Shown one piece after another: positions 2,158 to 64,000 of a stretch of DNA of 64,000 nucleotides. The notes under the pieces were generated by a model. The model was not told where the DNA came from and did not search any database. It worked only from the letters and a program-made list of their open reading frames with translations. Within the stretch, counting starts at the first letter, position 1. Every line of letters starts with the position of its first letter. The DNA comes from Candidatus Humimicrobiia bacterium. GTDB taxonomy: Bacteria > Actinomycetota > Humimicrobiia > JAHJRV01. Location: NCBI GenBank assembly GCA_049647085.1, contig JBARXA010000007.1:47060-111059 (forward strand), in the 5' to 3' direction. Made by a program: the position numbers and the translations under genes.

Positions 2158-2326
2158 AATTTAAGAATAGAATTAGAAACGCATTATTATAATAGCAAAT
2201 GATATATTGATAATCATTTTTAAACAAAGATTATTTTTACTAATATTTTTCCATATTTTTTTCAATACCCTATTAGTTATAGAGTAATAATTGTTTAGGA
2301 CATTTAAAATAGAAGAGGAGAAATTT

Positions 2327-7034: not shown

Positions 7035-8242
7035 TTAAATTACAAATTGCTGATATTCTCTTTGATTTAAAAAGCTTTCAATTTGCTTACTTATCTTGTA
7101 ATCTTTATTGTTCTCTGACAATTTAGTTATGTGAATAATATCTTTTTTGTAAAGAATATAAATTCCTTTATCTTCAAATAAAAATACATTTGCTAAACAT
7201 TTAGTAAAAGATATTCTGTATTTAGAAGGAGGAATTAAAATAAGTCTTCCCTTGAATTTAATAGTGTTATCAAAATTAACCTTTCTTTCGTAATTTTTAG
7301 AAAATATTAAATCTAAGTTAACATTAGAAGGCAATTTTTTATATACACTTTCTACACCTTTATATTAACAAATCTTTTGTTGTAATATGGTAGAAATTGT
7401 CTTTCAAGATAAATGTTTGCTTCTGATAGTTTTTAATTCCTTTATTAGTCTGTCTTGAAATGTTCCAAATAATCTTTCAATTCTTCCCTTAGCCTGAGGA
7501 GAGTTTGCTATGATAAGATTTGTGTTTAACTCTGTCAGTGTTTTTTCAATCTGTGTTTCATCTTGTTCACTTGACACATTTACATGTAATCCCTTGTACT
7601 TTGTAGTTTTAAAATGAGATGCCTTATCTACATATAAGCAATAAAAAAAACACTTTCTTTTTAATAGTTTCTTTAACAGCTTTAATATTGTTAAATACAC
7701 TATAAGATGAATAAAACTTAGTAAAAATGTGATTCTTTGATAGCATCATCAATGTTGCTATTAAATGCCACCTTTTCCTAATTGAGGGTATCCAGTAACG
7801 TAAAGATGAATCCACCTGAAATAACATACCTGCCTTAGGCACTCTCCTTCTACGCCCGTATAGTTTCTTTCTATTTTTACTTTATGAAGGTTGTATATTT
7901 AATTAAGATCTTTCTTATAGTCTAATAAAAAAACTTAATATTATGTATTTCTTTTAAATTATCTTTAAAATGGGCAATATTATATTAAAAGCAAAATAGA
8001 TCTCTTTATAATGGTTAGCTCTATTTTTTTAAAGAGGCAGTTTTTTTACGGGGAAACTCTCCTTTAGGTCTAAGTAATCCTTCAAATCCACATTTTAATA
8101 CCTTTTGCTTAAGTATTAATATATGAACATAATTATATACTAAAAGTTGAGCAGTTTCATATCCTTTTATTTGCTTATTTATTAGTTGATGTAAAATCTT
8201 ATACTTTTTGATATCTTTCATTGTAATAATTAGTTTTTTCAT
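7035..8242 (-). pseudogene. Decayed ISNCY-like (rve/DDE integrase-type) transposase, broken into at least 4 frames
   Basis: Consecutive minus-strand ORF fragments cover the gene. 8021-8242 is an HTH N-terminus (MKDIKKYKILHQLINKQI.GYETAQLL). 7624-7842 is a decayed catalytic core (FQVDSS...W). 7404-7700 carries the SPQAKGRIERLFGTFQDRL motif. 7035-7334 is the C-terminal part. Frameshifts and stops separate the fragments. Confidence 0.7.
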
Positions 8243-9605: not shown

Positions 9606-10694
9606 ATGGTCAATTATAAGGAAATAAAAAGAAAATTATTAAAAAAAATAGAAATGTTATCCCGATCAGAACTTTCGAAATTTAAGGTTTTAACAATGTC
9701 TGATTTTATATTAGACCATATTCTTTTTATAGATGATTTTGATTATTTTTTGAGAGAAGTTAAACGAATCTATAAACAAGGTGGTGGTGATCTTCCAGCT
9801 ATAAGGCAAACAATACAAAGAGGTGGCTGTAGTGCAAATACTGCAAGTGGACTCAGTGCTTTAGGAATAGACACATATTTTATTGGACGTACTAACCTTT
9901 TTGGGAAAAAACTTTTAGAATTTTTTCTCGGTGAGAAAAATGTGAATATAAAAAATTTGAAAACTGATGGGAATTTGAGTCTTATGACAATTTTTGAGAT
10001 TGGAAAAGAAAAAATTAATGTAATGGTTGGAGACCCGGATTCATTATCGCCTTTGGGATATAAAGATATTACTTCATCAGACAGGAAACTATTACATTCC
10101 TGTAATTTAGTCGGAATTTCTGGTTGGGCAATGAATAGGTCTGGAACTGATTTGGCTAAAGGCGTTTTTAATTTTGCAAAAAAAGTGAATACTTTGACTT
10201 ATCTTGACACTGCTGATCCTAGTTTTAGATTGGAGGAGATAAAAGATTTATATGAATATGTTATATCGAATAAAAATTTAGATATATTAAGCATCAATGA
10301 AAATGAACTTAATTATTATTCTAGTTTTATCTCTACCAAAGATAGTAATCTAAATATTTTGGAAAAAGGTGTTCTGTTAAAGAAAAATATTTCAGCTAAG
10401 ATAGATATTCATACTTCATTATACTCAGCTTCATTAGATGGTGATGAAGTATATATCATGCCCGCTTTTAAAGTGAATATTAAAAGAACTACAGGAGCTG
10501 GGGATATGTTTAACTCTGGAAATATTTTAGGATATCTTCTAAAATTAGAGCCCCTCGAACGGTTGCAGTTCGCTAATGCAATGGCTGGCTGTTTTATTTC
10601 TTCAAATATTCCATTACCTCCTAATATAAAAGATATCTATAATTTTATAAATAATACGCCATTTAAACCATTAAAAGGTGAAATAGTTGGGTAG
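9606..10694 (+). CDS. PfkB-family carbohydrate/nucleoside kinase
   Basis: 362 aa. Carries the GG...N.A..LSALG motif and the C-terminal TGAGDMFNSG anion-hole motif of the ribokinase/PfkB family. It starts 3 nt after the SIS stop. Confidence 0.8.
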   Translation: MVNYKEIKRKLLKKIEMLSRSELSKFKVLTMSDFILDHILFIDDFDYFLREVKRIYKQGGGDLPAIRQTIQRGGCSANTASGLSALGIDTYFIGRTNLFGKKLLEFFLGEKNVNIKNLKTDGNLSLMTIFEIGKEKINVMVGDPDSLSPLGYKDITSSDRKLLHSCNLVGISGWAMNRSGTDLAKGVFNFAKKVNTLTYLDTADPSFRLEEIKDLYEYVISNKNLDILSINENELNYYSSFISTKDSNLNILEKGVLLKKNISAKIDIHTSLYSASLDGDEVYIMPAFKVNIKRTTGAGDMFNSGNILGYLLKLEPLERLQFANAMAGCFISSNIPLPPNIKDIYNFINNTPFKPLKGEIVG

Positions 10695-13062
10695 TAAAAA
10701 AAATAGAAAACCTATTACGAAAAGAATAGAAAAATTAAGAAATAAAATTATTAATACGGTGCGTAAGTTAGATATTGAGAGAGCAAGATTATTTACTGAA
10801 TCCTATAAAAAGAATGAGAATAAACCTTTAATATTGCGGCGTGCGATGAGCTTATCCTATGTTTTAGAAAATATGACTATAGCTATAGATCCAAATGAAC
10901 TCGTAGTTGGAGATAAGGCAATTGAACCAAGGAATGGTGATGTTTCTCCTGAGATGGCGGTAGATTGGATTAATGAGGAATTAGAAAATTTACCTATTCG
11001 ACCTCAAGATCAATTTAAAGTATCAAGTAGAGATATTTCAGAATTACGCGAAGAAATTTTTCCTTATTGGGAAGGAAAAACATTAAAAGAGGCTATTAAT
11101 AATGCTATGAAAGGTGAAATTAGAAGGGCAATTCAAGAAGGTGTATTTATATTAAATCAAACAGATCATGGGCAAGGACATATATTACCTAATATGGAGA
11201 AGTGGTTAAAGAAAGGAATCTGTGGTTTAAAAAAAGACGTTGAAGAACATATAAATAAATTTAAGAGTTGTGCTAGTAAAAATTATAGGAAGTTTAATTT
11301 TTACAAGTCAGCTCTTATAACACTTGAAGCATCAGAGGTTTTTATAAAACGATATGCAGATTTATCTAAAGAAATGGCTTCTAATTTTGATGGTATGGAA
11401 AAAGAAAATTTATATAAAATATCTGAAATTTGCACTAATTTGATTAATAGACCTCCTATTACTTTCAGAGAAGCTATCCAGGCTTTGTGGTTTCTAATAG
11501 TAATAATTCAAATAGAATCTAATGTTACTTCAATTTCTCCCGGAAGATTGGATCAATACCTTTTCTCATATTATCTTAAAGATATTAATTCCGGAAATAT
11601 TTCAAAGATTCATGCACAAGAAATATTAGAGAATCTTTGGATTAATTTCAACAAAATTGTATTTCTTCGTAGTTCAGAGAGTGCACAATATTATGCTGGA
11701 TTTCCTATGGGCTTTAATATCGCCATAGGAGGTCAAAATATAGATGGAAAAGATGCTACAAATGAATTATCTTATATGTGCTTAAAGGCACAGGAGGACA
11801 TTGGATTCCCTCAACCTAATTTATCAGTAAGATTACATAGTACTACACCAACGGATTTTTTACTAGAAGTTTGTAAAGCAATAAGTTATGGTGATGGACA
11901 ACCACAACTGTTCAATGATGAGGTTATAATTCCTGCACTATTAAATTGTGGTTATTCATATGAGGATGCGAGAAATTATGCTATTGTTGGATGTGTTGAG
12001 ATTTCTGTTCCTGGAAATACAATGGGTCTCACAAATGCTGCTATGGTAAACATGGTCAAAATATTAGAGTTAACTATGAATAATGGAGTATCAAGAACTA
12101 CCCAACATCAGGTTGGTACAAAAACTGGGACTTTGAGTACCTTTGAAGACTTTGAAGAAGCTTTTGAAAAGCAATTAAAACATTTTATTAGTTTAATGGT
12201 TAGAGGATCTAGAATTGTAGAAAAGATGCACGCTAGTATGGTACCTACTCCTTTTCTTTCAACAGTTATTGATAATTGCTTGGAGAAAAGAAAAGATGTA
12301 ACTGATGGTGGCGCAAAATATAATTTTTCAGGAGTTCAAGGTGTTCAAATAGCGAATATAGCTGATTCTCTTATTGTAATTAAAAAAGTTATTTATGAGG
12401 ACAATTTATTAGACCTAAAAAGTTTTAATGTTATTTTAGATAAAAATTATGAAGATGCTGAAGAAATTCGCCAGATGCTAATATATAAACTTCCAAAATA
12501 TGGCAATGATATTGAAGAGGTTGACAATTTAGCTAATAAGTGGGCAAAAAAATATTGTAAGTTGATTGAAGAACATAAAAATTATCGTGGTGGTCAATTT
12601 CATCCTGGATTTTATACAGTTTCTGCATACATTCCTATGGGTTTTGTTGTAGGAGCAACCCCAGATGGACGGAAAGCTTTTAGTCCTCTAGCTGATGGAG
12701 GTCTATCACCAATGAGGGGTTTGGATGTAAAAGGTCCAACAGCAATATTGAAATCTGTATCAAAAATTGATTTATTGTTGGCTTCTAATGGTTCACTTTT
12801 AAATCTTAAGTTCCTCCCCTCCTTCTTTGAAACTGATGGAGCTTTTAAACATTTTTCAGCATTTCTTAGGACGTTTGTTGATCTTAAAGTCCAACATGTT
12901 CAGTTTAATGTTATTTCATCTAAAATTTTAAGGGAAGCACAAAAAGAACCTCAAAATTATAGAAATTTATTAGTAAGAGTTGCGGGTTATAGTGCTTTTT
13001 TTGTAGAACTCTCTAAAGAAATGCAGGAAGAAATAATTATGAGAACAGAGCATACTGGTTAA
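10687..13062 (+). CDS. Glycyl radical enzyme, PFL-like fold, single-Cys eliminase class; substrate unknown
   Basis: 791 aa. N-terminal ERARLFTESYK. Cys loop VGCVE at nt 11989-12000 (GCVE, not the CC of pyruvate formate-lyase). Glycyl radical loop RVAGYSAFF with Gly767 at nt 12985-12987. The TTG start overlaps the kinase stop by 8 nt and is preceded by AAAGGTG. Confidence 0.92.
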   Translation: MGSKKNRKPITKRIEKLRNKIINTVRKLDIERARLFTESYKKNENKPLILRRAMSLSYVLENMTIAIDPNELVVGDKAIEPRNGDVSPEMAVDWINEELENLPIRPQDQFKVSSRDISELREEIFPYWEGKTLKEAINNAMKGEIRRAIQEGVFILNQTDHGQGHILPNMEKWLKKGICGLKKDVEEHINKFKSCASKNYRKFNFYKSALITLEASEVFIKRYADLSKEMASNFDGMEKENLYKISEICTNLINRPPITFREAIQALWFLIVIIQIESNVTSISPGRLDQYLFSYYLKDINSGNISKIHAQEILENLWINFNKIVFLRSSESAQYYAGFPMGFNIAIGGQNIDGKDATNELSYMCLKAQEDIGFPQPNLSVRLHSTTPTDFLLEVCKAISYGDGQPQLFNDEVIIPALLNCGYSYEDARNYAIVGCVEISVPGNTMGLTNAAMVNMVKILELTMNNGVSRTTQHQVGTKTGTLSTFEDFEEAFEKQLKHFISLMVRGSRIVEKMHASMVPTPFLSTVIDNCLEKRKDVTDGGAKYNFSGVQGVQIANIADSLIVIKKVIYEDNLLDLKSFNVILDKNYEDAEEIRQMLIYKLPKYGNDIEEVDNLANKWAKKYCKLIEEHKNYRGGQFHPGFYTVSAYIPMGFVVGATPDGRKAFSPLADGGLSPMRGLDVKGPTAILKSVSKIDLLLASNGSLLNLKFLPSFFETDGAFKHFSAFLRTFVDLKVQHVQFNVISSKILREAQKEPQNYRNLLVRVAGYSAFFVELSKEMQEEIIMRTEHTG

Positions 13063-21375: not shown

Positions 21376-22302
21376 GTGAACAACAATTTTTCTATTGGTG
21401 ATAATAAGGGTCTAATTTTCAACATACAGAGATTCAGTATTCATGATGGTCCTGGGATAAGAACAGTAATATTTTTAAAGGGATGTCCTTTAGTTTGTGG
21501 ATGGTGTTGTAATCCTGAGGGTCAGGATACAGAAATGGAAATAATGTTCCTAAGTGAGAGGTGTATAAATTGTAACACTTGTTACACTGTTTGTGATAAT
21601 GATGCAATCATAAAAAAGCCTAATAAGTATAGAGTCAAAAAAAAATTTTGTAATCTTTGTTGCGAGTGTATAAGAGCGTGTCCTTCCGGAGCTTTAAAAC
21701 TTGTAGGAAGATATTATTCTATAAATGAAGTTATAAAGGAGATTTTAAAGGATGAAATTGTTTATTACAGATCAAATGGAGGGATAACTCTTTCTGGTGG
21801 TGAGCCTCTTTACCAGTGGAAATTTTCATTAAATGTATTTAAGGCTTGTAAAGATTTAGGTATAAATACTGCCTTAGAAACATGCGGTTATGGACCTTGG
21901 GAGAATTTTAAAAAAATTTTAGAGCATGTAGACTGGTTATTTTACGACATTAAACATATTGATTCAGATATTCATAAATATTTAACAAGTGTAGATAATA
22001 AAATAATATTGAAAAATGCGAAAAGAGCTTCTGACTTGAATATAAATATGATTTTGCGTTTTCCAATAATATCAGGTATTCATGACAATGAACAGTACGT
22101 ATTAAAGATTATGAAGCTATCAAAGGAGTTGGGTATTAAAGAAATACATCTACTACCTTATCATAAATGGGGGGTTTCAAAATATAAAAATTTAGGTAGA
22201 CAATACAAATTTGTAGATTTGGAGAAGGTAAAGAATTCTACTTTAGAAAAATTAAATTTGATCCTGGAGTTGGATGGTTTTAAAGTTTCGATTGTAGAAT
22301 AA
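21376..22302 (+). CDS. Glycyl-radical enzyme activating enzyme (radical SAM) with two auxiliary ferredoxin-type cluster motifs
   Basis: Radical SAM motif CPLVCGWC (Cx3Cx2C) within GCPLVCGWCCNPE. Also CINCNTCYTVC and CNLCCECIRACP, plus the GGEPL SAM motif. This architecture is typical of activases for eliminase-class GREs. Confidence 0.9.
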   Translation: MNNNFSIGDNKGLIFNIQRFSIHDGPGIRTVIFLKGCPLVCGWCCNPEGQDTEMEIMFLSERCINCNTCYTVCDNDAIIKKPNKYRVKKKFCNLCCECIRACPSGALKLVGRYYSINEVIKEILKDEIVYYRSNGGITLSGGEPLYQWKFSLNVFKACKDLGINTALETCGYGPWENFKKILEHVDWLFYDIKHIDSDIHKYLTSVDNKIILKNAKRASDLNINMILRFPIISGIHDNEQYVLKIMKLSKELGIKEIHLLPYHKWGVSKYKNLGRQYKFVDLEKVKNSTLEKLNLILELDGFKVSIVE

Positions 22303-54428: not shown

Positions 54429-56369
54429 ATGACAGAAGAGTTCTTAAATAAAACTATAGACCCGGCAACAAAAGAAATGCTCAAATATGCTTATGATAAT
54501 AACATCTCTACTATGTTTTCAAGAGTAGAGGAAATGAAAAAATGTCCAATTGGAGCAGAAGGTAGGTGTTGTAAAAATTGTGCAATGGGTCCTTGCAGAT
54601 TTACTGGAAAGGATTATGAGGAGAAAGTTGGTATATGTGGTGCTACTTTGTCTACAGTTGCAGCTAGAAATCTTGGTAGAGCTATCGCTGCTGGAGCATC
54701 AGCTCACTCAGACCATGGAAGAGACCTTGCTTTAACTTTGAAAGCTGTGGCAAAAGGGGAAGCTCCTGGATATGAAATAAAAGATGAGCAAAAACTATAT
54801 AATGTCGCAAAATTTATGGAAGTGGAAACAGACGGAAGAGATGTAAAAGAAATAGCGCTTGATGTAGCTGATAGAGCACTTGAAGATTTTGGGAGGCAGG
54901 AGGGGATAATCTATTATGTTTCAAGAGCACCTAAAAGGCGTCAGGAGATATGGGAAAAAGCAAGAATATACCCAAGGGGAGTTGATAGAGAAGTTGTTGA
55001 GATGATGCATAGAACCCATATAGGAGTTGATCAGGATGCTGAAAATATACTACGTCATGGATTAAGAACATCATTAAGTGATGGTTGGGGTGGTTCAATG
55101 TTGGCTACAGATATATCAGATATTTTGTTCGGTACACCAAAAGCAGTTTCTTCAACTACGAACCTTGGAGTTTTAAAGGAGGATGAAGTTAATTTAGTTA
55201 TACATGGTCATGAACCAACATTATCTGAAATGATAGTCACTGTTGCAGATGACCCAGAACTTATTAATTATGCTAAATCAAAAGGTGCAAAAGGGATAAA
55301 CATAACTGGAATATGTTGCACTGCAATTGAAATTCTTATGAGACAGGGTGTCCCAGTTGTTGGAAACTTCTTACAACAGGAATTAGCTATATTAACTGGA
55401 GCTGTTGATGCTATGGTTGTAGATATTCAGTGTATAATTCAGGCTTTGGGAAAATTGGTTGAAACTAATCATACAGAACTTATAACTACCTCACCAAAAG
55501 CTAAAATTCCAGGAGCAACCCACATACCTTTTGATGAACACAATGCTCCAGAAATTGCAAAACAGATAATAATGAAAGCTATAGATAATTTTTCAAATAG
55601 AAATGGCACAAGAATTCCAAATGTAAGTAGTCCATTGGTTGCTGGATTTTCACATGAATATATAAATTATATGTTAGGAGGAAAATATAGAGCATCTTTT
55701 AGACCTCTTAATGATGCGATAATTGATGGAAGGATTCAAGGTGTAGTTGGAGTAGTTGGTTGTAATAACCCAAGGGTAACGCATGATAAATCTCATAATT
55801 ATCTAGTTAAAGAGTTAATATCAAGAGATTATTTGGTGGCTCAAACTGGCTGTGGAGCAATTGCATGTTCAAAATACGGATTACTTAGACCTGAGGCAAT
55901 GGAACATGCTGGTGAAGGGCTACGATCTATTTGTGAAACAGTTGGTATCCCACCAGTTCTACATCTTGGTTCATGTGTAGATAACTCAAGGATATTAACA
56001 GTTCTTGCTCAGGTTGTACATGAAGGTGGTTTAGGAGAAGATATAAGCGATCTTCCTGCTGCTGGAATTGCGCCTGAATGGATGAGTGAGAAAGCACTAT
56101 CAATAGGAACTTATTTTGTTGCATCAGGTCTTTATGTTTTATTTGGAGTGGGTTCACCAGTCGGAGGAAGTTCTGAAGTTACCGAAATGATTAATAATGG
56201 ATGGGAAAAATTGATTGGTGGAAAATTGGAATTTGAACCAGATCCTGAAAAAATATTGGAAAAGACAATTGATCATATTCAGAAAAAAAGAAAGGCTTTA
56301 GGAATACATGAAAAGAAAGAACGAGTATTATTTGATATGGAAACAAGAAGGGAGTTAGAAATTGAGTAA
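54429..56369 (+). CDS. cooS: Anaerobic Ni-Fe-S carbon monoxide dehydrogenase catalytic subunit (CooS/AcsA)
   Basis: 646 aa. The N-terminal B/D-cluster motif CPIGAEGRCCKNCAMGPCRF, plus HGHEP, GICCT, GCNNP and GSCVDNSR C-cluster ligand motifs. Confidence 0.95.
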   Translation: MTEEFLNKTIDPATKEMLKYAYDNNISTMFSRVEEMKKCPIGAEGRCCKNCAMGPCRFTGKDYEEKVGICGATLSTVAARNLGRAIAAGASAHSDHGRDLALTLKAVAKGEAPGYEIKDEQKLYNVAKFMEVETDGRDVKEIALDVADRALEDFGRQEGIIYYVSRAPKRRQEIWEKARIYPRGVDREVVEMMHRTHIGVDQDAENILRHGLRTSLSDGWGGSMLATDISDILFGTPKAVSSTTNLGVLKEDEVNLVIHGHEPTLSEMIVTVADDPELINYAKSKGAKGINITGICCTAIEILMRQGVPVVGNFLQQELAILTGAVDAMVVDIQCIIQALGKLVETNHTELITTSPKAKIPGATHIPFDEHNAPEIAKQIIMKAIDNFSNRNGTRIPNVSSPLVAGFSHEYINYMLGGKYRASFRPLNDAIIDGRIQGVVGVVGCNNPRVTHDKSHNYLVKELISRDYLVAQTGCGAIACSKYGLLRPEAMEHAGEGLRSICETVGIPPVLHLGSCVDNSRILTVLAQVVHEGGLGEDISDLPAAGIAPEWMSEKALSIGTYFVASGLYVLFGVGSPVGGSSEVTEMINNGWEKLIGGKLEFEPDPEKILEKTIDHIQKKRKALGIHEKKERVLFDMETRRELEIE

Positions 56370-58542
56370 AATAATTGCATCGGCGGCAATTAGAGGCGCT
56401 CACCAGAAGGTGAAAGAAGCCCAGGAAATATTAGATAAATCATTAGAGCAGTTTGGACCAAAACAAGAGGTTGAGTTTCCTAATACAGGTTATTATTTAC
56501 CCATAATATATGGAATAACGGGAATAGCAATTAAAAAATTGGGGGACATGCAACCGGTTTTGGATGAGGCTAAAAAGTTATTACCGCCTGTTCCTAAAGA
56601 TAAAGTTTGGTTACCATATTTAGGGAATGCATTGGATGCTGGAATGGCTACACTTTTTGCAGAGGAGATTATGGAAGCAATTAAATATATAATGGATCCA
56701 AATCCAGTACAAGATATCTGGCTTGGTGCAGCAGAGGATATGACTATAAGAGAAAGGGGAATAGAATTTGTGGATGGCTCAGCTCCAGGTTTTGCAGCAG
56801 TAATTGGAGCTACTCCAACAAATGATATGGCAGTAAAGATAGCAAGGGAACTTCAGCAAAAGAGTATTTATATATTAATGTCTGGAAATACTAATGGAAA
56901 AGCATTTGCTGAACAGCTGAATGAAGAGGGAGTTGATTTAGGATGGGAAACCAGACTTGTTCCATTTGGAAAGGAAATAGGAGCTACAGTTTATTCTTTA
57001 GGTTTTGCAACAAGAGTTGCATTAACATTTGGTGGAGTAAAACCGGGAGATTATAGAAGGGTCCTTCTTTACAATAAAAACAGGATTTTTGCATTTGTAC
57101 TTGCATTAGGTGAAGTTACTGATGAGAAGTATGCTAATGCAGCGGGAGCTATAAATTTTGGATTTCCGACAATTGCAGATACTGATATTCCTTCAATTCT
57201 TCCAAGAGGAGTTTGTACTTACGAACATGTTGTACCAAGTATAAAAAGGGAGGAAATTGTCTCTAAAGGGATTGAGGTAAGAGGACTCAAATTAACTATT
57301 ACAGAAGTACCTGTACCAATACCATACGGCCCAGCATTTGAGGGTGAGAGAGTTAGGAAAGAAGATATGCACGCTGAATTTGGTGGAACAAAGAGTAAAT
57401 GTTTGGAATTTTTATATACAAAAGATTTAGCTGAAGTTGAGGATGGGAAGATTGAGTTAATTGGTCCAGACGTAGATACAATAGAACCAGGTACTGCAAT
57501 TCCATTAGCAATTATTGTAGAAGTTGCAGGGAGGGATATGCAACCCGATTTTGAACCAATATTGGAGAGACAGATTCACCATTTCACAAATTATGGTCAT
57601 GGTTTATTACATATTGGTCAAAGGGATATTTCCTGGATAAGAATAAGTAAAGATGCTTATAATGCTGGATTCAGAATAGAGGATATTGGAAAAATAATTC
57701 ATGCAAAGTTACATAGTGATTTTGGAGCTATTCTGGATAAAGTTCAGGTAAAACTATATACAGATGAAAAGCAAGTAGAAGAACTTTTAAAAGTTGCTAA
57801 ACCAGTTTATAAAGTAAGGGATGATAGAATTGGTGCACTAACTGATGAGAGTGTAGATACTTTCTATTCCTGCACATTATGTCAATCGTTTGCTCCAAAT
57901 CATGTTTGTATTATTTCCCCAGAAAGACCAGGACTTTGTGGTGCATACAATTGGCTGGACGGAAAAGCATCTAATCAGATAAATCCTACTGGACCTAATC
58001 AACCAGTTAAAAAAGGAGAATTGATTGATAAGCATCTTGGGCAATGGAAAGGTGTTAATGAATTTGTTTATAAAAATTCTCACCAAACGCTTGCTACATT
58101 TAGTGCATATTCAATGATTAATGATCCTATGACTTCATGTGGTTGTTTTGAAACAATAGTTGCAGTTCTTCCAATGACAGGTGGAGTAATGGTTGTTCCA
58201 AGAGAACACCCTGATATGACTCCATGTGGAATGAAATTCTCAACACTGGCTGGTTCTGTTGGTGGCGGAGTCCAGACACCAGGCTTTATTGGAGTTAGTA
58301 AGTTCTTTTTAAGCAGCAAGAAGTTTATAAAAGCCGATGGAGGATTTAAACGCTTGGTATGGATGCCAAAAATGTTGAAGGAAGAAGTAAGAGAAGCATT
58401 TCAACACAGAGCGGATGAATTAGAAATCCCGGATTTTCTGGACAAGATTGCGACTGAGGAAAATGCTGTAACAGAAGAGGAAGTTCTTAATTTTATACAA
58501 AAAGTAGGACATCCAGTATTAGAAATGGAATCAATGTTCTAA
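56362..58542 (+). CDS. acsB: CO-methylating acetyl-CoA synthase (bacterial AcsB, A-cluster subunit)
   Basis: 726 aa and collinear with Moorella-type AcsB. Carries FYSCTLCQSFAPNHVCIISPERPGLCGAYNWLD and MTSCGCFE (A-cluster Cys-Gly-Cys). The TTG start overlaps the cooS stop by 8 nt. Confidence 0.95.
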   Translation: MSKIIASAAIRGAHQKVKEAQEILDKSLEQFGPKQEVEFPNTGYYLPIIYGITGIAIKKLGDMQPVLDEAKKLLPPVPKDKVWLPYLGNALDAGMATLFAEEIMEAIKYIMDPNPVQDIWLGAAEDMTIRERGIEFVDGSAPGFAAVIGATPTNDMAVKIARELQQKSIYILMSGNTNGKAFAEQLNEEGVDLGWETRLVPFGKEIGATVYSLGFATRVALTFGGVKPGDYRRVLLYNKNRIFAFVLALGEVTDEKYANAAGAINFGFPTIADTDIPSILPRGVCTYEHVVPSIKREEIVSKGIEVRGLKLTITEVPVPIPYGPAFEGERVRKEDMHAEFGGTKSKCLEFLYTKDLAEVEDGKIELIGPDVDTIEPGTAIPLAIIVEVAGRDMQPDFEPILERQIHHFTNYGHGLLHIGQRDISWIRISKDAYNAGFRIEDIGKIIHAKLHSDFGAILDKVQVKLYTDEKQVEELLKVAKPVYKVRDDRIGALTDESVDTFYSCTLCQSFAPNHVCIISPERPGLCGAYNWLDGKASNQINPTGPNQPVKKGELIDKHLGQWKGVNEFVYKNSHQTLATFSAYSMINDPMTSCGCFETIVAVLPMTGGVMVVPREHPDMTPCGMKFSTLAGSVGGGVQTPGFIGVSKFFLSSKKFIKADGGFKRLVWMPKMLKEEVREAFQHRADELEIPDFLDKIATEENAVTEEEVLNFIQKVGHPVLEMESMF

Positions 58543-58581
58543 ATTAGATTTACAAGATAAGAATAATATTTGGAGGTTATA

Positions 58582-58806
58582 GTGGAAAAGGAAGTATTAA
58601 TAACTAAAGATATGACTATTGGAGAAGTTGTAACTAAATATCCTCAAACTATGCCAGTTTTTTTTAGCTACGGTCTTCCATGTGTGGGATGCCATGTTGC
58701 TAATTGGGAAAGTGTTGAGGAGGGAGCAGTTGCCCATGGAATTAAAGATGTTAAAAAATTAGTTGAGGATTTAAACAAAGTTGCTGAGCAAGTTAATATT
58801 AAATAG
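58582..58806 (+). CDS. DUF1858 domain protein (hybrid-cluster-protein-associated redox disulfide family)
   Basis: ITKDMTIGEVVTKYPQTMPVFFSYGLPCVGCHVA....VEEGAVAHGI matches the DUF1858 pattern with its CxxC. The likely GTG start is at 58582, after TTGGAGG; the ORF track starts at 58570. Confidence 0.7.
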   Translation: MEKEVLITKDMTIGEVVTKYPQTMPVFFSYGLPCVGCHVANWESVEEGAVAHGIKDVKKLVEDLNKVAEQVNIK

Positions 58807-58873
58807 AGAAAATATTAACATAATATTTTCTTAATCTATAATATTCTCTTAAATATCCACATTAGGAGTTAGT

Positions 58874-59242
58874 TTGAATCAAAAGCTATTTGAAAATTAT
58901 GAATTTATTTTCATAGTAGTATTTGTTCCATTAATCATAATAATTTTGTTTTATTTATTACAAAAATTTATTAATTTCATTTCTGGTAAATCAACCACCA
59001 CTAAATCTTCTACAAAAATGCATCCAAAAAGTTACAATTTGCAAACATTTACTATAGGCTATTTAGAACCTATTCTTATTGTGATAATACTTTTTTATGA
59101 GGTAGGTTTATTATTTTTTGGAGGTTTAATAGTATTGTCTTCACTTAATGGAAAATTTATAGCCATAGTTATGACTATTTTAATCTTATTGTTTATTTTG
59201 GGCTTAATTTTAATATATAGAATGTATAGTACAAAGTATTAA
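58874..59242 (+). CDS. Small 3-TM membrane protein, possibly a very divergent NuoA-like subunit
   Basis: 122 aa and three hydrophobic segments, in the position of nuoA directly upstream of a nuoB-like gene. Resemblance to NuoA is weak: HPKSY...ILFYEVGLLFF versus P.K..YE.G...lF.iFDvE..Fl. Confidence 0.35.
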   Translation: MNQKLFENYEFIFIVVFVPLIIIILFYLLQKFINFISGKSTTTKSSTKMHPKSYNLQTFTIGYLEPILIVIILFYEVGLLFFGGLIVLSSLNGKFIAIVMTILILLFILGLILIYRMYSTKY

Positions 59243-59321
59243 AAATGCTATTAAAATATTAAGAAGCTAAAAAATGTATTTAATATTTATAGGATAATGT
59301 GTAATAACAAAATAAAAATAT

Positions 59322-59771
59322 ATGTTAGATAAACCTAAACATTTAAGAAAAATTAAATTTCTGAATAGATTAAAAAATTGGGTGAAGTTAACATCTATAA
59401 ATGTATATTGCTTTTCATCAGGATGTTGTGGAGATGAAATTTTGGCAACTTATGGGCCCGTTTATGACCTTGAGAGATTGGGAGTAAACTTTGTCTCTTC
59501 TCCAGAAAGAGCGGATGTTCTAATGATAGCGGGAATCATCACCAAAGAAATGAAATCCACATTAGAAGATTTATATAACAGCACCGAAGATAAGAAAGTG
59601 GTAATAGCGGTTGGCTCATGTGCAATAAATGGGGGTCCTTTTTACAAAAGCGATTATATATTAAATGGAGTAAAAGAAATTTTTAATGTGGACCTTTATG
59701 TACCAGGTTGTCCACCAAGACCAGAAGCAATTATATATTCAATTTTAAGATATAAGGACAGGTTTAAATAA
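59322..59771 (+). CDS. NuoB-like [4Fe-4S] subunit (complex I / group-4 hydrogenase small-subunit family)
   Basis: 149 aa. Carries SGCCGDE (tandem Cys as in NuoB), SPERADVLMIAG, GSCAINGGPF and VPGCPPRPEAI. Confidence 0.85.
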   Translation: MLDKPKHLRKIKFLNRLKNWVKLTSINVYCFSSGCCGDEILATYGPVYDLERLGVNFVSSPERADVLMIAGIITKEMKSTLEDLYNSTEDKKVVIAVGSCAINGGPFYKSDYILNGVKEIFNVDLYVPGCPPRPEAIIYSILRYKDRFK

Positions 59772-59857
59772 CAAACCAAAAATATTAACAAAATATTGAA
59801 TTTTAAAAGAGGGTGTAAAAAATAGATACTTATAGCATATATATTGAGCCTAAATTT

Positions 59858-60904
59858 ATGCCATTTGGATTTCCCATTGGATTGAATATTGACTTAAAAG
59901 AAGATGTGGTTATTAATTTGAATCCAGATTTTGGATATTTAAGGACTGGTGTTGAAAAAATAATTGAGGGAATAGAAATTGATAAGGTTATTCCATTTAT
60001 TAATAGAGTTGATACTAGCAGTGCGATATCTGTCGAACTTGCATATTGTATTGCCTTAGAAAATTATTTCAAAATAGAGGTACCCATAAGAGCAAAATTT
60101 ATTCGGGTAATTCTCAGTGAACTTTCGAGAATATCCAGTCATATACTATTTTTAACCAAGTTAGCGAATGCATTGGGTATGAATATGCCACTTCATTATT
60201 GCTTGAGAGAAAGAGAAGAAATACTTCATCTTATAGAGGTTGCAACAGGATCGAGACTAACTCCAAATTTTGTAAGAGTTGGGGGTATAAAAAGTGATTT
60301 GAGCATGCAGTTTTTTGACAAATTAAAAGAAATGTTAAAGGGTTTTAGAAAAAAGGTTCATGAGATAAGAGTATTTTTCTTAGAGAATGAGCTGGTAGTT
60401 AATAGACTAAATAATTTGGGTATTTTAGTAAAAGAAGATGCTATTAAATTAGCTATTAGTGGTCCAAACTTAAGAGCCCTGGGGGTATCCCGGGATATTA
60501 GAAAAAATGATAATTACGAAATATATGATGAGTTAAATTTCAAAGTGCCCATTGGTGATAGAGGAGATAGTTTGGACAGATGTATGGTTAGAATAGAGGA
60601 AATAGAAAAATCTATTTCTATTATTTCGCAGGCTCTTTATAAAGTGCCAGAGGGAAAAATAAGAACATATGGTGTAGTTAATACTCATTTAACGGAAAAT
60701 ATATATAGCCATGTTGAATGTCCCCACGGTGAACTGGGTATGAATATGTCAGTAAGTGAGGGTAGAATAGCTAAATTAAGCATAAAAGGACCTTCATATA
60801 ATAACCTGTTTGCTTTTTCAAAAGCAGTTATAGGTGAAAAACTCGAGGATATTGAATTAATACTGGCAAGTTTTGATATCTGTGTGTGTGAGGTAGATAA
60901 ATGA
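59858..60904 (+). CDS. NuoD-like / [NiFe]-hydrogenase large-subunit-like protein lacking the NiFe and quinone ligands
   Basis: 348 aa. Carries GYLRTGVEK, PIRAKFIRVILSELSRISSHILFL, RVGGI, GDSLDRCMVRIEEI, ECPHGELG and C-terminal SFDICVCEVDK. It is collinear with NuoD but N-terminally short. Its stop overlaps the next start (ATGA). Confidence 0.8.
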   Translation: MPFGFPIGLNIDLKEDVVINLNPDFGYLRTGVEKIIEGIEIDKVIPFINRVDTSSAISVELAYCIALENYFKIEVPIRAKFIRVILSELSRISSHILFLTKLANALGMNMPLHYCLREREEILHLIEVATGSRLTPNFVRVGGIKSDLSMQFFDKLKEMLKGFRKKVHEIRVFFLENELVVNRLNNLGILVKEDAIKLAISGPNLRALGVSRDIRKNDNYEIYDELNFKVPIGDRGDSLDRCMVRIEEIEKSISIISQALYKVPEGKIRTYGVVNTHLTENIYSHVECPHGELGMNMSVSEGRIAKLSIKGPSYNNLFAFSKAVIGEKLEDIELILASFDICVCEVDK

Positions 60905-61854
60905 TTTTAAAAGCTTTATATTTCTTATTATTTCTATTTTTAGGACTATATATAATTATCTACCTTCATAAGAAAGCACTAGCTCATATGCAATCAAGAA
61001 GAGGACCATTACAAACTGGTTTTCATGGAACTTTACAAATATTTTCTCAAATTTTGAAATCAATTTTAAATTGGCCAAAATTATTTACCAGTTTGCAAGA
61101 TCTATCTAATAACATTGGAGTGATGATCTCACTTACATTTGCCATATTAGCCTTTCTGTTAATTCCCCTGACAGAAGATATTTTCTTAATGAATATTGAG
61201 ATGTCCCTGCCACTTTGTCTTTCTTTTATTATGATATCCAACATGGGTGCATTTCTTTCAATTAAGAAGGTTAAATTAAATACGAATAAAATGGCAGATT
61301 TATTAGATAGGATATCTACTGTTCTTATATTTAGCATTCCATTATTCATATCATCTATGGGGCCTGTAATAGTTTCGTCATCTTTTAATCTTTTTGAAAT
61401 AGTTCGAGCGCAAAGTAGATTCTATAACATCTTATACCAACCATTAAGTTTTATTGTTTTTTTATTAAGTTGTTCTTTGCTTTGGCAGAGATTACCTCTT
61501 GATGTTCCATTAAAGGATACCTACTTTAGTACTGATTATCTTTCTACTCAAACTGGATTGAATTATCTAATATCTACCATCTCTGAGTATATTAATATTA
61601 TATCCTTATTGATTCTGGGAACCCTACTTTATCTTGGTGGGTGGAATGGTCCAAAAAATTTACATCCACTGGTCTGGACTATAATAAAGACTTTTATTTT
61701 ACAAGTAATACTATTATTTTTATATACTATTATTCCCAGAATAAGAGGTTTTAGAAAAAAAATGAATTTAAGTTTAGCCATTCTTTGTTTATTATCATTT
61801 TTAAACTTATTGATTATAATATTTTTGGTTCTTTATTTGAAACCTGTTTTTTGA
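60901..61854 (+). CDS. NuoH-like membrane subunit (divergent)
   Basis: 317-aa polytopic protein. N-terminal MQSRRGPLQTG..GTLQ resembles NuoH mQ.R.GPn.vG..GllQ. The pattern R.P.D......EY.N......LYLGGW lies near the C-terminus. Confidence 0.65.
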   Translation: MILKALYFLLFLFLGLYIIIYLHKKALAHMQSRRGPLQTGFHGTLQIFSQILKSILNWPKLFTSLQDLSNNIGVMISLTFAILAFLLIPLTEDIFLMNIEMSLPLCLSFIMISNMGAFLSIKKVKLNTNKMADLLDRISTVLIFSIPLFISSMGPVIVSSSFNLFEIVRAQSRFYNILYQPLSFIVFLLSCSLLWQRLPLDVPLKDTYFSTDYLSTQTGLNYLISTISEYINIISLLILGTLLYLGGWNGPKNLHPLVWTIIKTFILQVILLFLYTIIPRIRGFRKKMNLSLAILCLLSFLNLLIIIFLVLYLKPVF

Positions 61855-61863
61855 GTTTAGCTT

Positions 61864-62286
61864 ATGAAGGGTATATTTAGAAGTTTAATAACTGTTATCA
61901 GAAATACATTTAAGAGATCTGTAACTGTTCTTTATCCACATGATAGAATAATGGTTCCTTATAATAGCAGGGGAAGCATTCAATTAATGGTGGATCCAGA
62001 TACAAGAAAGATCCTCTGTGATGGATGTGGTCAATGCGAGAAATCTTGTCCATTAAAATTGATATCTATTGAAGTAGATATCAGTAATAAAAAATTAAAA
62101 AGTTTTTATATAGATATTAGCAGATGTATGTTCTGTGGTTTTTGTGAGGAAGCATGCAAGAAAAAAGCATTGAAAATGAGTTTTAATTATGAGCTGACTG
62201 AAAAGGATTTTTCAGCTTTAAAATATGATATTGAAAAATTAACCAAACACGCGAGGCCGAAGTTAAGGAAATTCTGGAAAACTTAA
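61864..62286 (+). CDS. NuoI-like 2x[4Fe-4S] ferredoxin subunit
   Basis: 140 aa. Two cluster motifs, CDGCGQCEKSCP and CMFCGFCEEACK. The size and N-terminal (L)YP... motif fit NuoI. Confidence 0.8.
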   Translation: MKGIFRSLITVIRNTFKRSVTVLYPHDRIMVPYNSRGSIQLMVDPDTRKILCDGCGQCEKSCPLKLISIEVDISNKKLKSFYIDISRCMFCGFCEEACKKKALKMSFNYELTEKDFSALKYDIEKLTKHARPKLRKFWKT

Positions 62287-62335
62287 AAAAACTTTAAAAA
62301 ATTAAAAAATTTATTATTAGTTAAAAGGCAAATAA

Positions 62336-62824
62336 TTGGAAAACATATTATTTTATATAGTATCAATACTTATTATAATGGGTGCTTTAGGTATTGTTCT
62401 TTTTAAAAAGCATCTATTTATAGTTTTGAGTTTTTTGATCTGTGTTTTAAGCATAAGTTTTCTTTTTTTATTTTTGAAAAATTCTGTTCTCTTTTTATTT
62501 ATATATATTCCCCTTCCAGCAATAATCGCGGGTCTATTATTGGCAGGAATTGGAGAAAGGGAGAATCTAGTTTTTAATTGGAAAAGAGATTGGCCAAGAA
62601 CTTTTATAGCAATTTTTATAGCCATATTAGTATTATTAGGTCTTGTTTTTGTGATTAATAATAGTAAGTGGGAAACAACTAAAGTTGATGAATTTCAATC
62701 CACTTCTCCAGCAAAAATTGCCGAGATATTATATGTTGAACATACTACACTTCTGATAATTATATTTATTTATTTTATCAGCTTTTTTGTTGGAATATAT
62801 TTTGTTTCTAAAGATAGGAAGTAG
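62336..62824 (+). CDS. NuoJ-like membrane subunit (tentative)
   Basis: 162 aa. Three N-terminal TM helices, a loop and a C-terminal TM helix. Its position between the I-like and K-like genes fits. Motif similarity is weak. TTG start. Confidence 0.5.
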   Translation: MENILFYIVSILIIMGALGIVLFKKHLFIVLSFLICVLSISFLFLFLKNSVLFLFIYIPLPAIIAGLLLAGIGERENLVFNWKRDWPRTFIAIFIAILVLLGLVFVINNSKWETTKVDEFQSTSPAKIAEILYVEHTTLLIIIFIYFISFFVGIYFVSKDRK

Positions 62825-62827
62825 ATA

Positions 62828-63172
62828 GTGTTTTCTCTAAAAAATTATTTATATATATCCACGATTATATTCTGTTTAGGAATTTTTGGTGTCTTATTTA
62901 GAAGAAAGTTTTTATATAAGTTAATTAGTTCTTCACTAATAGCTTTATCAGCTATTATTAATTTTATTTCCTTCTCTTATTTTTTATATCCTGAAAAGAT
63001 TTTTCAACTGACTTTAATTATATTTATGATTGGCCTAATAATTATGCAGTTTGCTATAGGATTTTTTGTTTATTACCTTATTAAAAGAGAAGGGAAAGAT
63101 ATAGATCTAAAAAGGAGGGACCCCTTTTTAGAATTAAATTTAAAAATTGCTAACTTTTTTAGGAGGAAGTAA
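62828..63172 (+). CDS. NuoK-like membrane subunit (divergent; conserved Glu residues replaced)
   Basis: 114 aa with three TM helices. IIFCLGIFGVLFRRKFLY aligns with E. coli NuoK ILFVLGLTGLVIRRNLLF. GTG start. Confidence 0.55.
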   Translation: MFSLKNYLYISTIIFCLGIFGVLFRRKFLYKLISSSLIALSAIINFISFSYFLYPEKIFQLTLIIFMIGLIIMQFAIGFFVYYLIKREGKDIDLKRRDPFLELNLKIANFFRRK

Positions 63173-64000
63173 TTGTCAATTGACTTTTCTCTTATAATTC
63201 CTGAACTATTAATACTCTCTTCATTTCTTTTTGTTTTGTTACTTTTAGTTTTTAGTAGTGTGACAAAATTAAGATGGTTAAGTTATTCTTGTATTTTAGT
63301 AGTAATAGCTGCAATGGCTTTAACCTTTGTATTTAAAGACAGAATGGGAATTGTATCGGATAACTTTTTAGAGGTTAGTAAGATTTCAACCTTTTTTAGA
63401 TATTTATTTCTTTTTTCAGGGGCGAGTCTTTTAATTTCGCTAATTGTCTCTAAAGTAGAAAAACCTGGTATTTATGCTTTAATTCTAATTTCAATATTTG
63501 GTGCGATGTCACTTGGACTTAGTTCAAATCTATTATCACTACTAATGTTTTTAGAAATTGTTACAGTCTCGTCTTATTTTATCCCTACTTTAAAATTTGA
63601 GAAAATTGACTGGCTCTCATATCTGAGATATGTCATTTTTGGGATAATTTCAACCTTTTTATTTATATATTTGTTTTCCTTTATATATGGAATATCGGGA
63701 TCTCTTTCTTTAAATGTTAATTTTACAAACATTGATATTAATAAAGTAAATATTTTATTAATCATAGTGCATATAGTTATAATGGTAATAATGTCAATTA
63801 GATTGTCCCTATTCCCATTTCATATTTTGTTTCCCTCTCTTGCTAAAGATAGTGGTTTTTTTACAACACTTTTTTTCTCAATTCTTGTTATTCCTGTAAA
63901 TTTCCTGGCTCTTAAGAAGATATTAAATATAGCTGGTCATTTGGATAATACACCTCTTTTTGATAATTTTCTTGTAATTTTAATTCTCGTTTTCATAACA
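63173..64000 (+). CDS. NuoL/M/N-family antiporter-like subunit, 5' part (continues beyond the window); not in the supplied ORF track
   Basis: A TTG at 63173 lies 5 nt after AGGAGGA, and the frame stays open for 276 codons to the window end. Translation: LSIDFSLIIPELLILSS...LLSLLMFLEIVTVSSYF...IRLSLFPFHILFPS.... This matches the NuoN-type l.lflglE..sl and K...PFH.W.P patterns. Confidence 0.6.
   Translation, partial: MSIDFSLIIPELLILSSFLFVLLLLVFSSVTKLRWLSYSCILVVIAAMALTFVFKDRMGIVSDNFLEVSKISTFFRYLFLFSGASLLISLIVSKVEKPGIYALILISIFGAMSLGLSSNLLSLLMFLEIVTVSSYFIPTLKFEKIDWLSYLRYVIFGIISTFLFIYLFSFIYGISGSLSLNVNFTNIDINKVNILLIIVHIVIMVIMSIRLSLFPFHILFPSLAKDSGFFTTLFFSILVIPVNFLALKKILNIAGHLDNTPLFDNFLVILILVFIT

Follow-up and report, generated by a model that had tools for sequence, protein, structure and literature searches.

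Complex I, together with its relatives, serves as the model of redox-driven ion pumping, and there is still debate about which of the parts are indispensable. The DNA studied here, a stretch of 64,000 nucleotides (nt) from a Candidatus Humimicrobiia bacterium (contig JBARXA010000007.1, positions 47,060 to 111,059; GC content 30%), hereafter called the window, raises the question of what kind of enzyme is left when such a complex is pared down, and to what it passes its electrons. Eight co-directional open reading frames (ORFs) on the plus strand occupy positions 58874-64000 of the window. They encode a divergent, reduced module of the complex I type directly after the genes for carbon monoxide dehydrogenase (CODH) and acetyl-CoA synthase (ACS), as an earlier note on this DNA had proposed. 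Judged from its sequence, the module may well be a secondarily reduced and neofunctionalised descendant of a Nuo-type enzyme (complex I/NDH-1), linked to ferredoxin and directed to a non-canonical acceptor. We give this reading a probability of about 55%.

Composition of the module

The eight genes had been described as homologues of NuoA (tentatively), NuoB, NuoD, NuoH, NuoI, NuoJ, NuoK and an antiporter-like subunit, and all of them are found in this place. The gaps between them had been called tiny throughout, which does not apply to the A-B and B-D spacers of 79 and 86 nt (the latter counted to the ATG at 59858). To complete the operon, the loci of relatives were used (L001-L012, L020 and L021). 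L001, whose DNA is 98% identical to the window, stands in for the 3' end that lies beyond it. Among 5.8 billion proteins, only five clusters close to the D-like protein were found, at 99, 91, 69, 67 and 67% identity. Below these five, identity falls to 40% or less, and the proteins are ordinary NuoD and members of a sister family in which the C and D subunits appear to be fused. An exact-match look-up gave no record for the D protein of the window and found the K protein only on contigs of 1.5-2.3 kb. The metagenome-assembled genomes (MAGs) of the relatives carry the labels Actinobacteria or Actinomycetota from their submitters to NCBI. One of the loci, L020, represents a deep branch of the family and lies on a 551-kb contig, where CODH/ACS is also found upstream.

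The gene order conserved in the relatives is DUF1858, A-like, B, D, H, I, J, K and one antiporter-like gene of 456-498 amino acids (aa). In L001 the full N-like gene encodes 495 aa, and a GNAT acetyltransferase gene comes next. Throughout the relatives the genes after the N-like gene are unrelated (GNAT acetyltransferase, glutamate dehydrogenase, DUF1287 and, further on, ferredoxin and PFOR), and in six independent lineages and assemblies a single N-like gene closes the operon. Since it ends there, the module consists of eight subunits, A-B-D-H-I-J-K-N, and its operon is without C, L, M, E, F and G. The earlier note, which saw the antiporter-like gene run off the end of the window, had left it undecided whether L and M follow. 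The relatives settle this point: both are missing from the operon, as is C, in the window and in the six related lineages or assemblies.

The absence of NuoC and of NuoE/F/G, also claimed before, agrees with the searches made here. No homologue of NuoC, E, F, G, L or M was found in the 64-kb window by phmmer with the E. coli subunits, a search accompanied by a Pfam scan of most of the larger ORFs of the window. A hidden Markov model (HMM) built from the N-terminal domain of the sister family detected no NuoC-like domain in the window, nor in the loci of the family.

The D-like subunit and its former catalytic pocket

The reading frame of the D-like subunit almost certainly begins ahead of the ATG at 59858. 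In L007 and L012 this codon is ACG, relatives conserve the in-frame peptide KIDTYSIYIEPKF (from 59819), and a Shine-Dalgarno sequence, GAGGGTG, is found at 59809-59815. The codons ahead of the ATG encode KIDT(Y/N)SIYIEPKF, which is homologous to the N-termini of relatives with 371-378 aa. The Shine-Dalgarno sequence lies 6 nt before an ATA at 59822, and this non-canonical codon is the likely start. The in-frame stop reported upstream of the D-like ORF is real; it is a TAA at 59816-59818, immediately ahead of the conserved peptide. Gene callers shorten the D-like protein to 328-348 aa. With a start at the ATA, the B-D gap shrinks to 50 nt, which is too short for NuoC. A NuoC hidden in this gap was considered and rejected, as the gap measures 50-86 nt and holds the conserved N-terminus of D.

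The AlphaFold2 (AF2) model of D has a pLDDT of 91.6 and matches 49-kDa/NuoD chains in Foldseek with TM-scores of 0.94-0.95. The loss of hallmark residues from the D-like and membrane subunits, as previously described, is seen in the alignments. In D, the canonical loop GPQHPSTHGV is replaced by EP(K/Q)F-x-P-(F/L)-GFP, and His38 has become Gly. Tyr87 is Thr in the window and Cys, Ser or Asn in relatives, and Asp139 is Ala (T. thermophilus numbering). Asp401 is retained and Tyr87 is not. Aligned to E. coli HycE, the protein has Cys at just one of the four Ni-ligand positions: C241 corresponds to D52, C244 to S55, C531 to C342 and C534 to E345. The active-site Arg of the hydrogenases (PRG; HycE R479), which is Lys in Nuo, corresponds to H290 of D. 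This His is part of the motif E-C288-P-H290-G (ECPHG), invariant in 15 sequences of the family and the sister family. The C-terminus reads D-I-C342-V-C344-E-V-D-K (DICVCE). Residues specific to the family are C242, C288-P-H290 and C342-V-C344.

By their homology to the hydrogenase motifs, the new Cys and His residues would line the former catalytic pocket beside cluster N2. The replacement of His38, Tyr87 and Asp139, together with the conserved Cys and His, suggests that the acceptor is probably not a canonically bound quinone. A bolder proposal is that the remodelled pocket forms a new catalytic site, with C288-P-H290 and C342-V-C344 beside N2 serving metal binding or thiol/persulfide chemistry, and that the complex is a previously unrecognised ferredoxin-driven enzyme on which subseafloor Actinomycetota with CODH/ACS chiefly rely for energy coupling at the membrane. 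We regard this as rather doubtful. If it were true, the enzyme could be, e.g., a ferredoxin:sulfur or ferredoxin:disulfide oxidoreductase, or it could serve another small-molecule acceptor.

The C-D-fused sister family and the probable loss of NuoC

The sister D proteins have 499-504 aa and 33-40% identity, come from other MAGs labelled 'Actinomycetota' and share the ECPHG motif. More than 110 protein clusters of this type (P0015) were found by a profile search; examples are the loci L016 (9198-15233) and L017 (9258-15217) and the proteins P0015, P0020, P0033 and P0160-P0271. The operon reads A?-B-(NuoC-NuoD fusion)-H-I-J-K-one N, then DUF1287, and an uncalled ORF with three transmembrane segments (3-TM) stands ahead of B. 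Downstream, the window family and the sister family share a synteny of DUF1287 and, after it, a gene of about 300 aa on the minus strand. The sister loci contain neither CODH/ACS nor DUF1858.

The N-terminal domain of the sister D proteins (about 135 aa) has no significant profile match in the PDB by sequence, and the Pfam family Complex1_30kDa reaches only E=0.2. Its AF2 model has a pLDDT of 86, and NuoC-type chains or domains make up 48 of the top 50 Foldseek matches (ranks 1-48), among them the 30-kDa subunit, NDUFS3, MbhK, MbsK and the N-terminal region of HycE. On the strength of this predicted structure, the sister D is a NuoC-NuoD fusion. A fused NuoC in the sister family and none in the window and family loci argue that the window lineage lost NuoC secondarily.

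The two families have the ECPHG and PNF(I/V)RxGG motifs in common, and both are without His38 and the NuoK glutamates. The sister family differs in several respects: it retains the fused NuoC-like domain, position 87 is still Tyr or Trp, position 403 is Ser where the window family has Cys, its N subunit is without all four key charges, and its genomes have a GC content of 36-43%, compared with 25-31% in the window family. It is apparently undescribed, as no description was found in the open literature searched.

Probable Nuo-type ancestry

The module had been viewed as unlike standard Nuo and reminiscent of transitional complexes of the Mbx/Mbs type. The comparisons point elsewhere, since Nuo/NDH-1 proteins are the best matches of D, H, K and N, and B carries a tandem-Cys motif. 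Against the PDB, D scores 164-187 bits with most of the bacterial, mitochondrial and NDH-1 chains of NuoD/NdhH, followed by MbsL (151), E. coli NuoCD (141), the M. smegmatis chain (140), MbhL (128) and HycE (95). Among E. coli proteins it scores 146 with NuoCD and 94 with HycE (phmmer/profile set). H matches only NuoH/NdhA/ND1, with 101 bits for E. coli NuoH and no match to HycD or MbhM, and K matches NdhE and NuoK. In the PDB, N matches NuoN and NdhB first and then MbsH, MrpD and MbhH; among E. coli proteins it matches NuoN (55 bits), with no match to NuoL, NuoM or HycC.

A neighbour-joining (NJ) tree of D (365 columns, 100 bootstraps, rooted on HycE) unites the family and the sister group in 99 of 100 bootstraps. 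The clade forms a long branch nested inside NuoD. The distance of D to HycE is 2.10, compared with 1.64 for canonical NuoD. The nested position of the clade and the fused NuoC of the sister family argue for secondary reduction and not for an ancestral or intermediate form.

It has to be considered, nevertheless, that the module might be a transitional or ancestral form between the group 4 [NiFe] hydrogenases, Mbx/Mbs and complex I, in which the Cys at the Ni position is a vestige. One Cys does stand at the position of hydrogenase Ni ligand 3, the quinone ligands are missing, and vestigial Cys of this kind are retained in 'ancestral' Nuo, Mbx and Fpo proteins (PMC4758237; PMC7684303). However, D is farther from HycE than canonical NuoD is and its clade lies inside NuoD. 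The sister family has Ser at the position of Cys342, so that this Cys would be a late gain and not a vestige. Moreover, B carries the derived tandem-Cys motif, H, K and N are of the Nuo type, and the small subunits of the Mrp type are missing. A transitional origin is thus very improbable.

Iron-sulfur input and membrane subunits

The input side of the module is intact, in agreement with the earlier note: both the CCGDE motif of B and the two cluster motifs of the NuoI-like subunit are present. All four ligands of N2 are present in B, namely the tandem C35-C36 plus C100 and C130. The tandem Cys is of the Nuo type (SC-CYVE in E. coli NuoB), as opposed to CNGC, i.e. CxxC, in HycG. The NuoI-like protein has two CxxCxxCxxxC motifs for two [4Fe-4S] clusters, and the family alignment shows no exchange at any of the 12 Fe-S cysteines of B and I.

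The membrane subunits are much altered. The N-terminal motifs ERR and KED of H are replaced by HKK and LNW, and in the loop between TM5 and TM6 the sequence PEAEQEL...EYSG has become PLKDTYF...TQTG, with replacement of the acidic residues. K has S36 for E36 and Q74 for E72 (E. coli numbering), so that both membrane glutamates are gone; these substitutions are conserved across all members of the family and in the sister family. The single antiporter-like subunit of the module keeps two of the four key charges of NuoN: E128 and K388 are retained (E. coli E133 and K395), while K217 is replaced by R210 and K247 by N243. In antiporter-like subunits these charges are a Glu in TM5, a Lys in TM7, a Lys or His in TM8 and a Lys or Glu in TM12.

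K also has a C-terminal extension of about 15 aa. Part of it is encoded by a near-perfect 27-nt palindrome, TCTAAAAAGGAGGGACCCCTTTTTAGA, at 63106-63132, inside the 3' end of the K-like gene and about 40 nt ahead of the N-like start. The palindrome is flagged by a terminator scan on both strands and is kept in L001; it could modulate the expression of K and N.

The A-like protein is assigned only tentatively as a NuoA-like subunit. The top match of its family profile among 177,635 PDB sequences is NdhC, the homologue of NuoA/ND3 (E=0.009), and this match is colinear (residues 9-116 with 3-109). Two A-like members carry the JGI label 'subunit 3 (A)', and the gene precedes nuoB in all loci. There was no match in Pfam or NCBIfam and none to E. 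coli NuoA, either by phmmer or by profile. The profile search found only the protein's own family, with 2 representative clusters in 1.84 billion, and in a joint alignment with the ORFs of the sister loci identity is only 17-19%. The sole PDB match of the NuoJ-like protein is NuoJ (E=3.9); its sister counterpart reaches E=0.0014 with Oxidored_q3, and its position between I and K is conserved.

Any coupling would rest on the single NuoN-type subunit, without the carboxylates of the E-channel. We expect ion coupling to be reduced, altered or lost, and the complex may be at most a pump of low stoichiometry or altered mechanism, or else a non-pumping oxidoreductase. The earlier note had proposed a ferredoxin-oxidising, ion-translocating complex and had left the acceptor open. 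The ferredoxin part of this proposal stands as the best reading, whereas ion translocation is doubtful in view of the residues replaced in K, H and N.

A more conservative explanation is that of an ordinary complex I, linked to ferredoxin or NADH, whose NuoC, L and M, and perhaps E, F and G, are encoded elsewhere, as in the split ndh genes of cyanobacteria, and which would reduce menaquinone and pump protons in the normal way. All recognisable subunits are of the Nuo type, and the tandem Cys at N2 is typical of quinone-reducing enzymes. This explanation does not account for the replacement of His38, Tyr87 and Asp139, with position 87 being variable, nor for the loss of the NuoK glutamates and of the acidic residues in the NuoH loop. 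The operon stops after N in every lineage, and no resemblance of the N-like protein to NuoL or NuoM hints at paralogues. A detached nuoC is unlikely because NuoC is fused to D in the sister family, and none is found in the 64 kb. We therefore consider an ordinary complex I quite unlikely.

Selection and intactness

All genes of the module are under purifying selection. Pairwise dN/dS is mostly 0.10-0.45 over three divergence depths, with 0.50-0.62 for J in the comparison with L006. In every lineage the ORFs are unbroken and follow one order; they are intact in more than 10 assemblies, and the lineages differ by 30-45% in protein sequence. These data bear on the idea of a decaying relic, that is, a non-functional cluster heading for loss. 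Many hallmark residues are gone, dN/dS lies above that of typical respiratory genes, and a sister MAG (L016) has a split N gene. Nevertheless, eight ORFs have stayed intact and colinear across such distant lineages, dN/dS is far under 1 even for J (up to 0.6), the 12 Fe-S cysteines and the ECPHG and CVC motifs are invariant, and the type is found in more than 110 clusters. It is highly improbable that the cluster is a relic. While this idea conflicts with the conservation data, an ordinary complex I with scattered genes and a transitional form conflict with the features tested above.

Comparison with known complexes

The open literature searched contains no account of a Nuo module reduced in this way, and nothing specific on the energy metabolism of these lineages. 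As regards the sequences of D, H, K and N, the nearest complexes are the ferredoxin-dependent 11-subunit relatives of complex I that lack NuoEFG: NDH-1 of cyanobacteria and chloroplasts, the enzymes of the 'NUO11' operons in anaerobes and the Fpo-like complex of Methanothrix. The module shares with them the gene order A-B-(C)-D-H-I-J-K-...-N, the tandem-Cys N2, the two NuoI clusters and the lack of an NADH module. Since there is no NADH module, ferredoxin is the expected donor. In contrast to these complexes, the module is without NuoC, L and M, the quinone ligands, the glutamates of K and the acidic residues of the H loop. It falls short of the subunit set by which complex I is defined (A, B, C, D, H, I, J, K, L, M, N).

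By architecture, the closest system is Ech (EchABCDEF), which also has a single antiporter-like subunit and no NuoC homologue. Ech uses ferredoxin as substrate and is often tied to CO/CODH metabolism, e.g. in the Coo system. The differences lie in D, with its single Cys at the four Ni-ligand positions, in B, with CC and not CxxC, in the presence of separate A-, J- and K-like subunits, and in the Nuo-type phylogeny. To judge by its ligands, the module cannot be a [NiFe] hydrogenase.

By concept, the closest systems are MBS/Mbx (membrane-bound sulfane-sulfur reductase) and the hydrogenase-related Ehr complexes, which do not act as hydrogenases and do not reduce quinones either. MBS is without His38 and Tyr87, and Cys remain beside its proximal cluster (PMC7684303). 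This complex has 13 subunits, with an Mrp-type Na+ module, two antiporter-like subunits, the NuoC-like MbsK, a proximal cluster with three Cys, and Cys85 and Cys385 in MbsL (PMC7684303). The module differs from it by four N2 cysteines and the lack of Mrp subunits, and its D scores 151 bits with MbsL and 187 with NuoD. Only the equivalent of Cys385 is present in D. Ehr complexes are without the Ni/Fe ligands, and their partners are unidentified (PMC6349859). D of the module lacks the Ni/Fe ligands too but nests in NuoD, in an NJ tree that is rooted on HycE and contains no Ehr sequences. The Fpo complex comprises FpoABCDHIJKLMN(O,F), and FpoD has Tyr87, Phe146 and Asp401 (PMC4758237). Among these residues, D of the module is without Tyr87 and keeps Asp401, and its scores with the FpoD and FpoH models are far under the cutoffs. 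The module lacks defining features of NDH-1/Nuo, Ech, MBS/Mbx and Fpo alike.

Proposed electron route and the possible link to CODH/ACS

By analogy with the 11-subunit NDH-1 and Fpo-like complexes without NuoEFG, electrons would enter from reduced ferredoxin at the I-like subunit. Neighbouring CODH/ACS and the ferredoxin/PFOR genes downstream are the candidate sources of this ferredoxin. The sequence provides an unbroken wire of three [4Fe-4S] clusters, two in the I-like subunit and N2 in the B-like subunit, and N2 would hand the electrons to an acceptor in the D/B/H pocket. A sulfur or thiol compound, a metal-assisted reaction and an unconventionally bound menaquinone are candidates for this acceptor.

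About 5 kb downstream in relatives, a small ferredoxin with two [4Fe-4S] clusters is encoded, followed by a PFOR-type 2-oxoacid:ferredoxin oxidoreductase (L005 11591-11947; L006 10973-11503; L007 12359-12450). Two glutamate dehydrogenase paralogues are also found downstream in L005-L007, and the neighbourhood is rich in ferredoxin metabolism.

CODH/ACS lies directly upstream on the same strand in L001-L004, L012 and L020, wherever the contig reaches that far. The best sigma-70-like match of the region, TTAACA-16-TATAAT (11/12; 58815..58842, plus strand), is located in the 67-nt gap before the A-like gene. Promoter-like matches are overall at chance level, so that the site is no more than suggestive of a separate transcription start. 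As regards the tie to CODH/ACS previously proposed, the adjacency is conserved; the functional tie is weaker, because the sister operon has no CODH/ACS and the promoter-like site stands between DUF1858 and the A-like gene. A functional link of the module with CODH/ACS is therefore no more than suggestive. The DUF1858 protein, encoded by a small ORF between ACS and the A-like gene, was considered as a dedicated subunit or substrate and rejected, as it travels with CODH/ACS and is missing from the sister loci.

The complex might also operate in reverse, with the membrane potential driving electrons from a donor of higher potential onto ferredoxin, which would provide the low-potential electrons for CO2 reduction by CODH/ACS, in the manner of Eha, Ehb and Ech in methanogens. 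The tight placement after CODH/ACS on the same strand is conserved in the whole family, and complex-I-type enzymes are reversible in principle, as is generally known for Ech and Rnf. Such a mode, however, needs efficient ion coupling, and few of the residues on which coupling canonically depends are left. In addition, CODH/ACS does not accompany the operon in the sister family, and a separate promoter is possible. Reverse operation is rather unlikely. It differs from the forward, ferredoxin-oxidising mode only in direction, on which the sequence cannot decide.

The reading of the module as a ferredoxin-linked, secondarily reduced descendant of Nuo is the preferred one, and several points weigh against it. 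The ferredoxin donor is derived from analogy and neighbourhood only, and the larger sister family has no CODH/ACS neighbourhood. NuoL, NuoM, a separate NuoC or genes of quinone biosynthesis may lie elsewhere in the genome, beyond the 64-kb window. The phylogeny is a distance tree with a single hydrogenase outgroup and long branches, and that the new Cys and His lie close together in space is deduced from homology to hydrogenase motifs. In addition, dN/dS values of 0.2-0.45 are above those usual for core respiratory genes.

Gene inventory and other features of the window

The genes of the module and its upstream flank are listed in Table 1. The Pfam domain cutoffs are passed by B, D, H, K and N. 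Only one NCBIfam model, that of the broad NuoB subfamily, is passed (141 bits, cutoff 116), and every other model stays below its cutoff: NuoD 314 vs 360, NuoH 138 vs 305, FpoD 262 vs 600, FpoH 86 vs 475 and NdhH 236 vs 583 bits. Such scores mark the subunits as genuine homologues, yet very divergent ones. An Rfam scan of the window gave zero matches.

Table 1. Genes of the complex-I-type module and of the CODH/ACS locus upstream of it (positions in the window)
Feature	Position	Strand	Evidence and remarks
CODH	54429-56369	+	Prismane E=2e-170
ACS	56362-58542	+	CODH_A_N, CdhC, ACS_CODH_B_C
DUF1858 'hybrid-cluster-protein-associated redox disulfide' protein	58570..58806	+	TIGR03980 E=3.5e-25, PF08984; CxGC motif
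A-like, 3-TM, 122 aa	58874..59242	+	Tentative NuoA-like; TTG start, AGGAG ahead
NuoB-like, 149 aa	59322..59771	+	PF01058 E=2e-26; NCBIfam NuoB 141 bits (cutoff 116)
NuoD-like, 348 aa from ATG 59858, probably 360 aa from ATA 59822	59822..60904	+	PF00346 E=6e-67
NuoH-like membrane subunit, 317 aa	60901..61854	+	PF00146 E=2.5e-41; 4-nt overlap with D
NuoI-like, 140 aa	61864..62286	+	TIGR01971 E=8.5e-27; Fer4_7 E=5e-11; two CxxCxxCxxxC
NuoJ-like membrane subunit, 162 aa (weak)	62336..62824	+	NCBIfam NuoJ E=1.4e-5; Pfam Oxidored_q3 E=0.026
NuoK-like, 114 aa	62828..63172	+	PF00420 E=1e-11; GTG start
NuoN-type antiporter-like, first 276 of ~495 aa	63173..64000	+	PF00361; top NCBIfam match NuoN; open at window end

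The relatives differ from the window in parts of the operon DNA. The spacer between H and I has 9 nt in the window, L007 and L012, and 115-140 nt in L001, L004, L008, L009 and L020. The extra spacer DNA of L001 (11997-12138, corresponding to window 61854-61864) aligns as a duplicate of window 61809-61950. Identity between the window and L001 drops to 65-90% over the 3' end of ACS, DUF1858 and the gap before the A-like gene (58200-58890), and the final ~110 nt of the window (63890-64000, in the N-like gene) are closer to the L006 allele than to L001. These local drops and the L006-like 3' end point to recombination mosaics between strains.

Other genes of the window concern different processes. 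HypD (722-1804) and a HypE-like protein of the AIR synthase family (2291-3337) are encoded, which suggests maturation of one or more [NiFe] hydrogenases by this genome, although the D-like subunit of the module is unable to bind NiFe canonically. Several short, frame-broken ORFs lie in a gene-poor 2-kb stretch at 7035-8242 (minus strand), one of them ending in a GRIERLFGTFQDRLIKELK-like motif; they look like the remains of an integrase-type transposase from a degraded insertion sequence (IS) element. The positions 10687-13062 and 21376-22302 belong to a group of genes in which a glycyl radical enzyme resembling pyruvate formate-lyase (791 aa) has as neighbours an ABC transporter for sugars or nucleosides, a PTE-family hydrolase, dehydrogenases and a candidate radical-SAM activase; together these genes look like a substrate-specific cluster for glycyl-radical utilisation.

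Implications

The module can be seen as a natural 'deletion mutant' of the coupling machinery that is kept under selection, and it tests what complex I needs. It combines losses in one enzyme: a single antiporter-like subunit is left, and NuoC, the quinone ligands and the carboxylates of the E-channel are missing. It also suggests that the former hydrogenase/quinone site supports a third type of chemistry. The reaction is probably one that has yet to be described for this enzyme family. Humimicrobiia-type Actinomycetota make up 15-46% of the communities at one subseafloor site (PMC11920076), which is taken here as a lead only. The clade is widespread among uncultivated Actinomycetota of marine sediment and subsurface, and in the lineage of the window the module is a prime candidate for the handling of ferredoxin by these abundant, energy-starved organisms.

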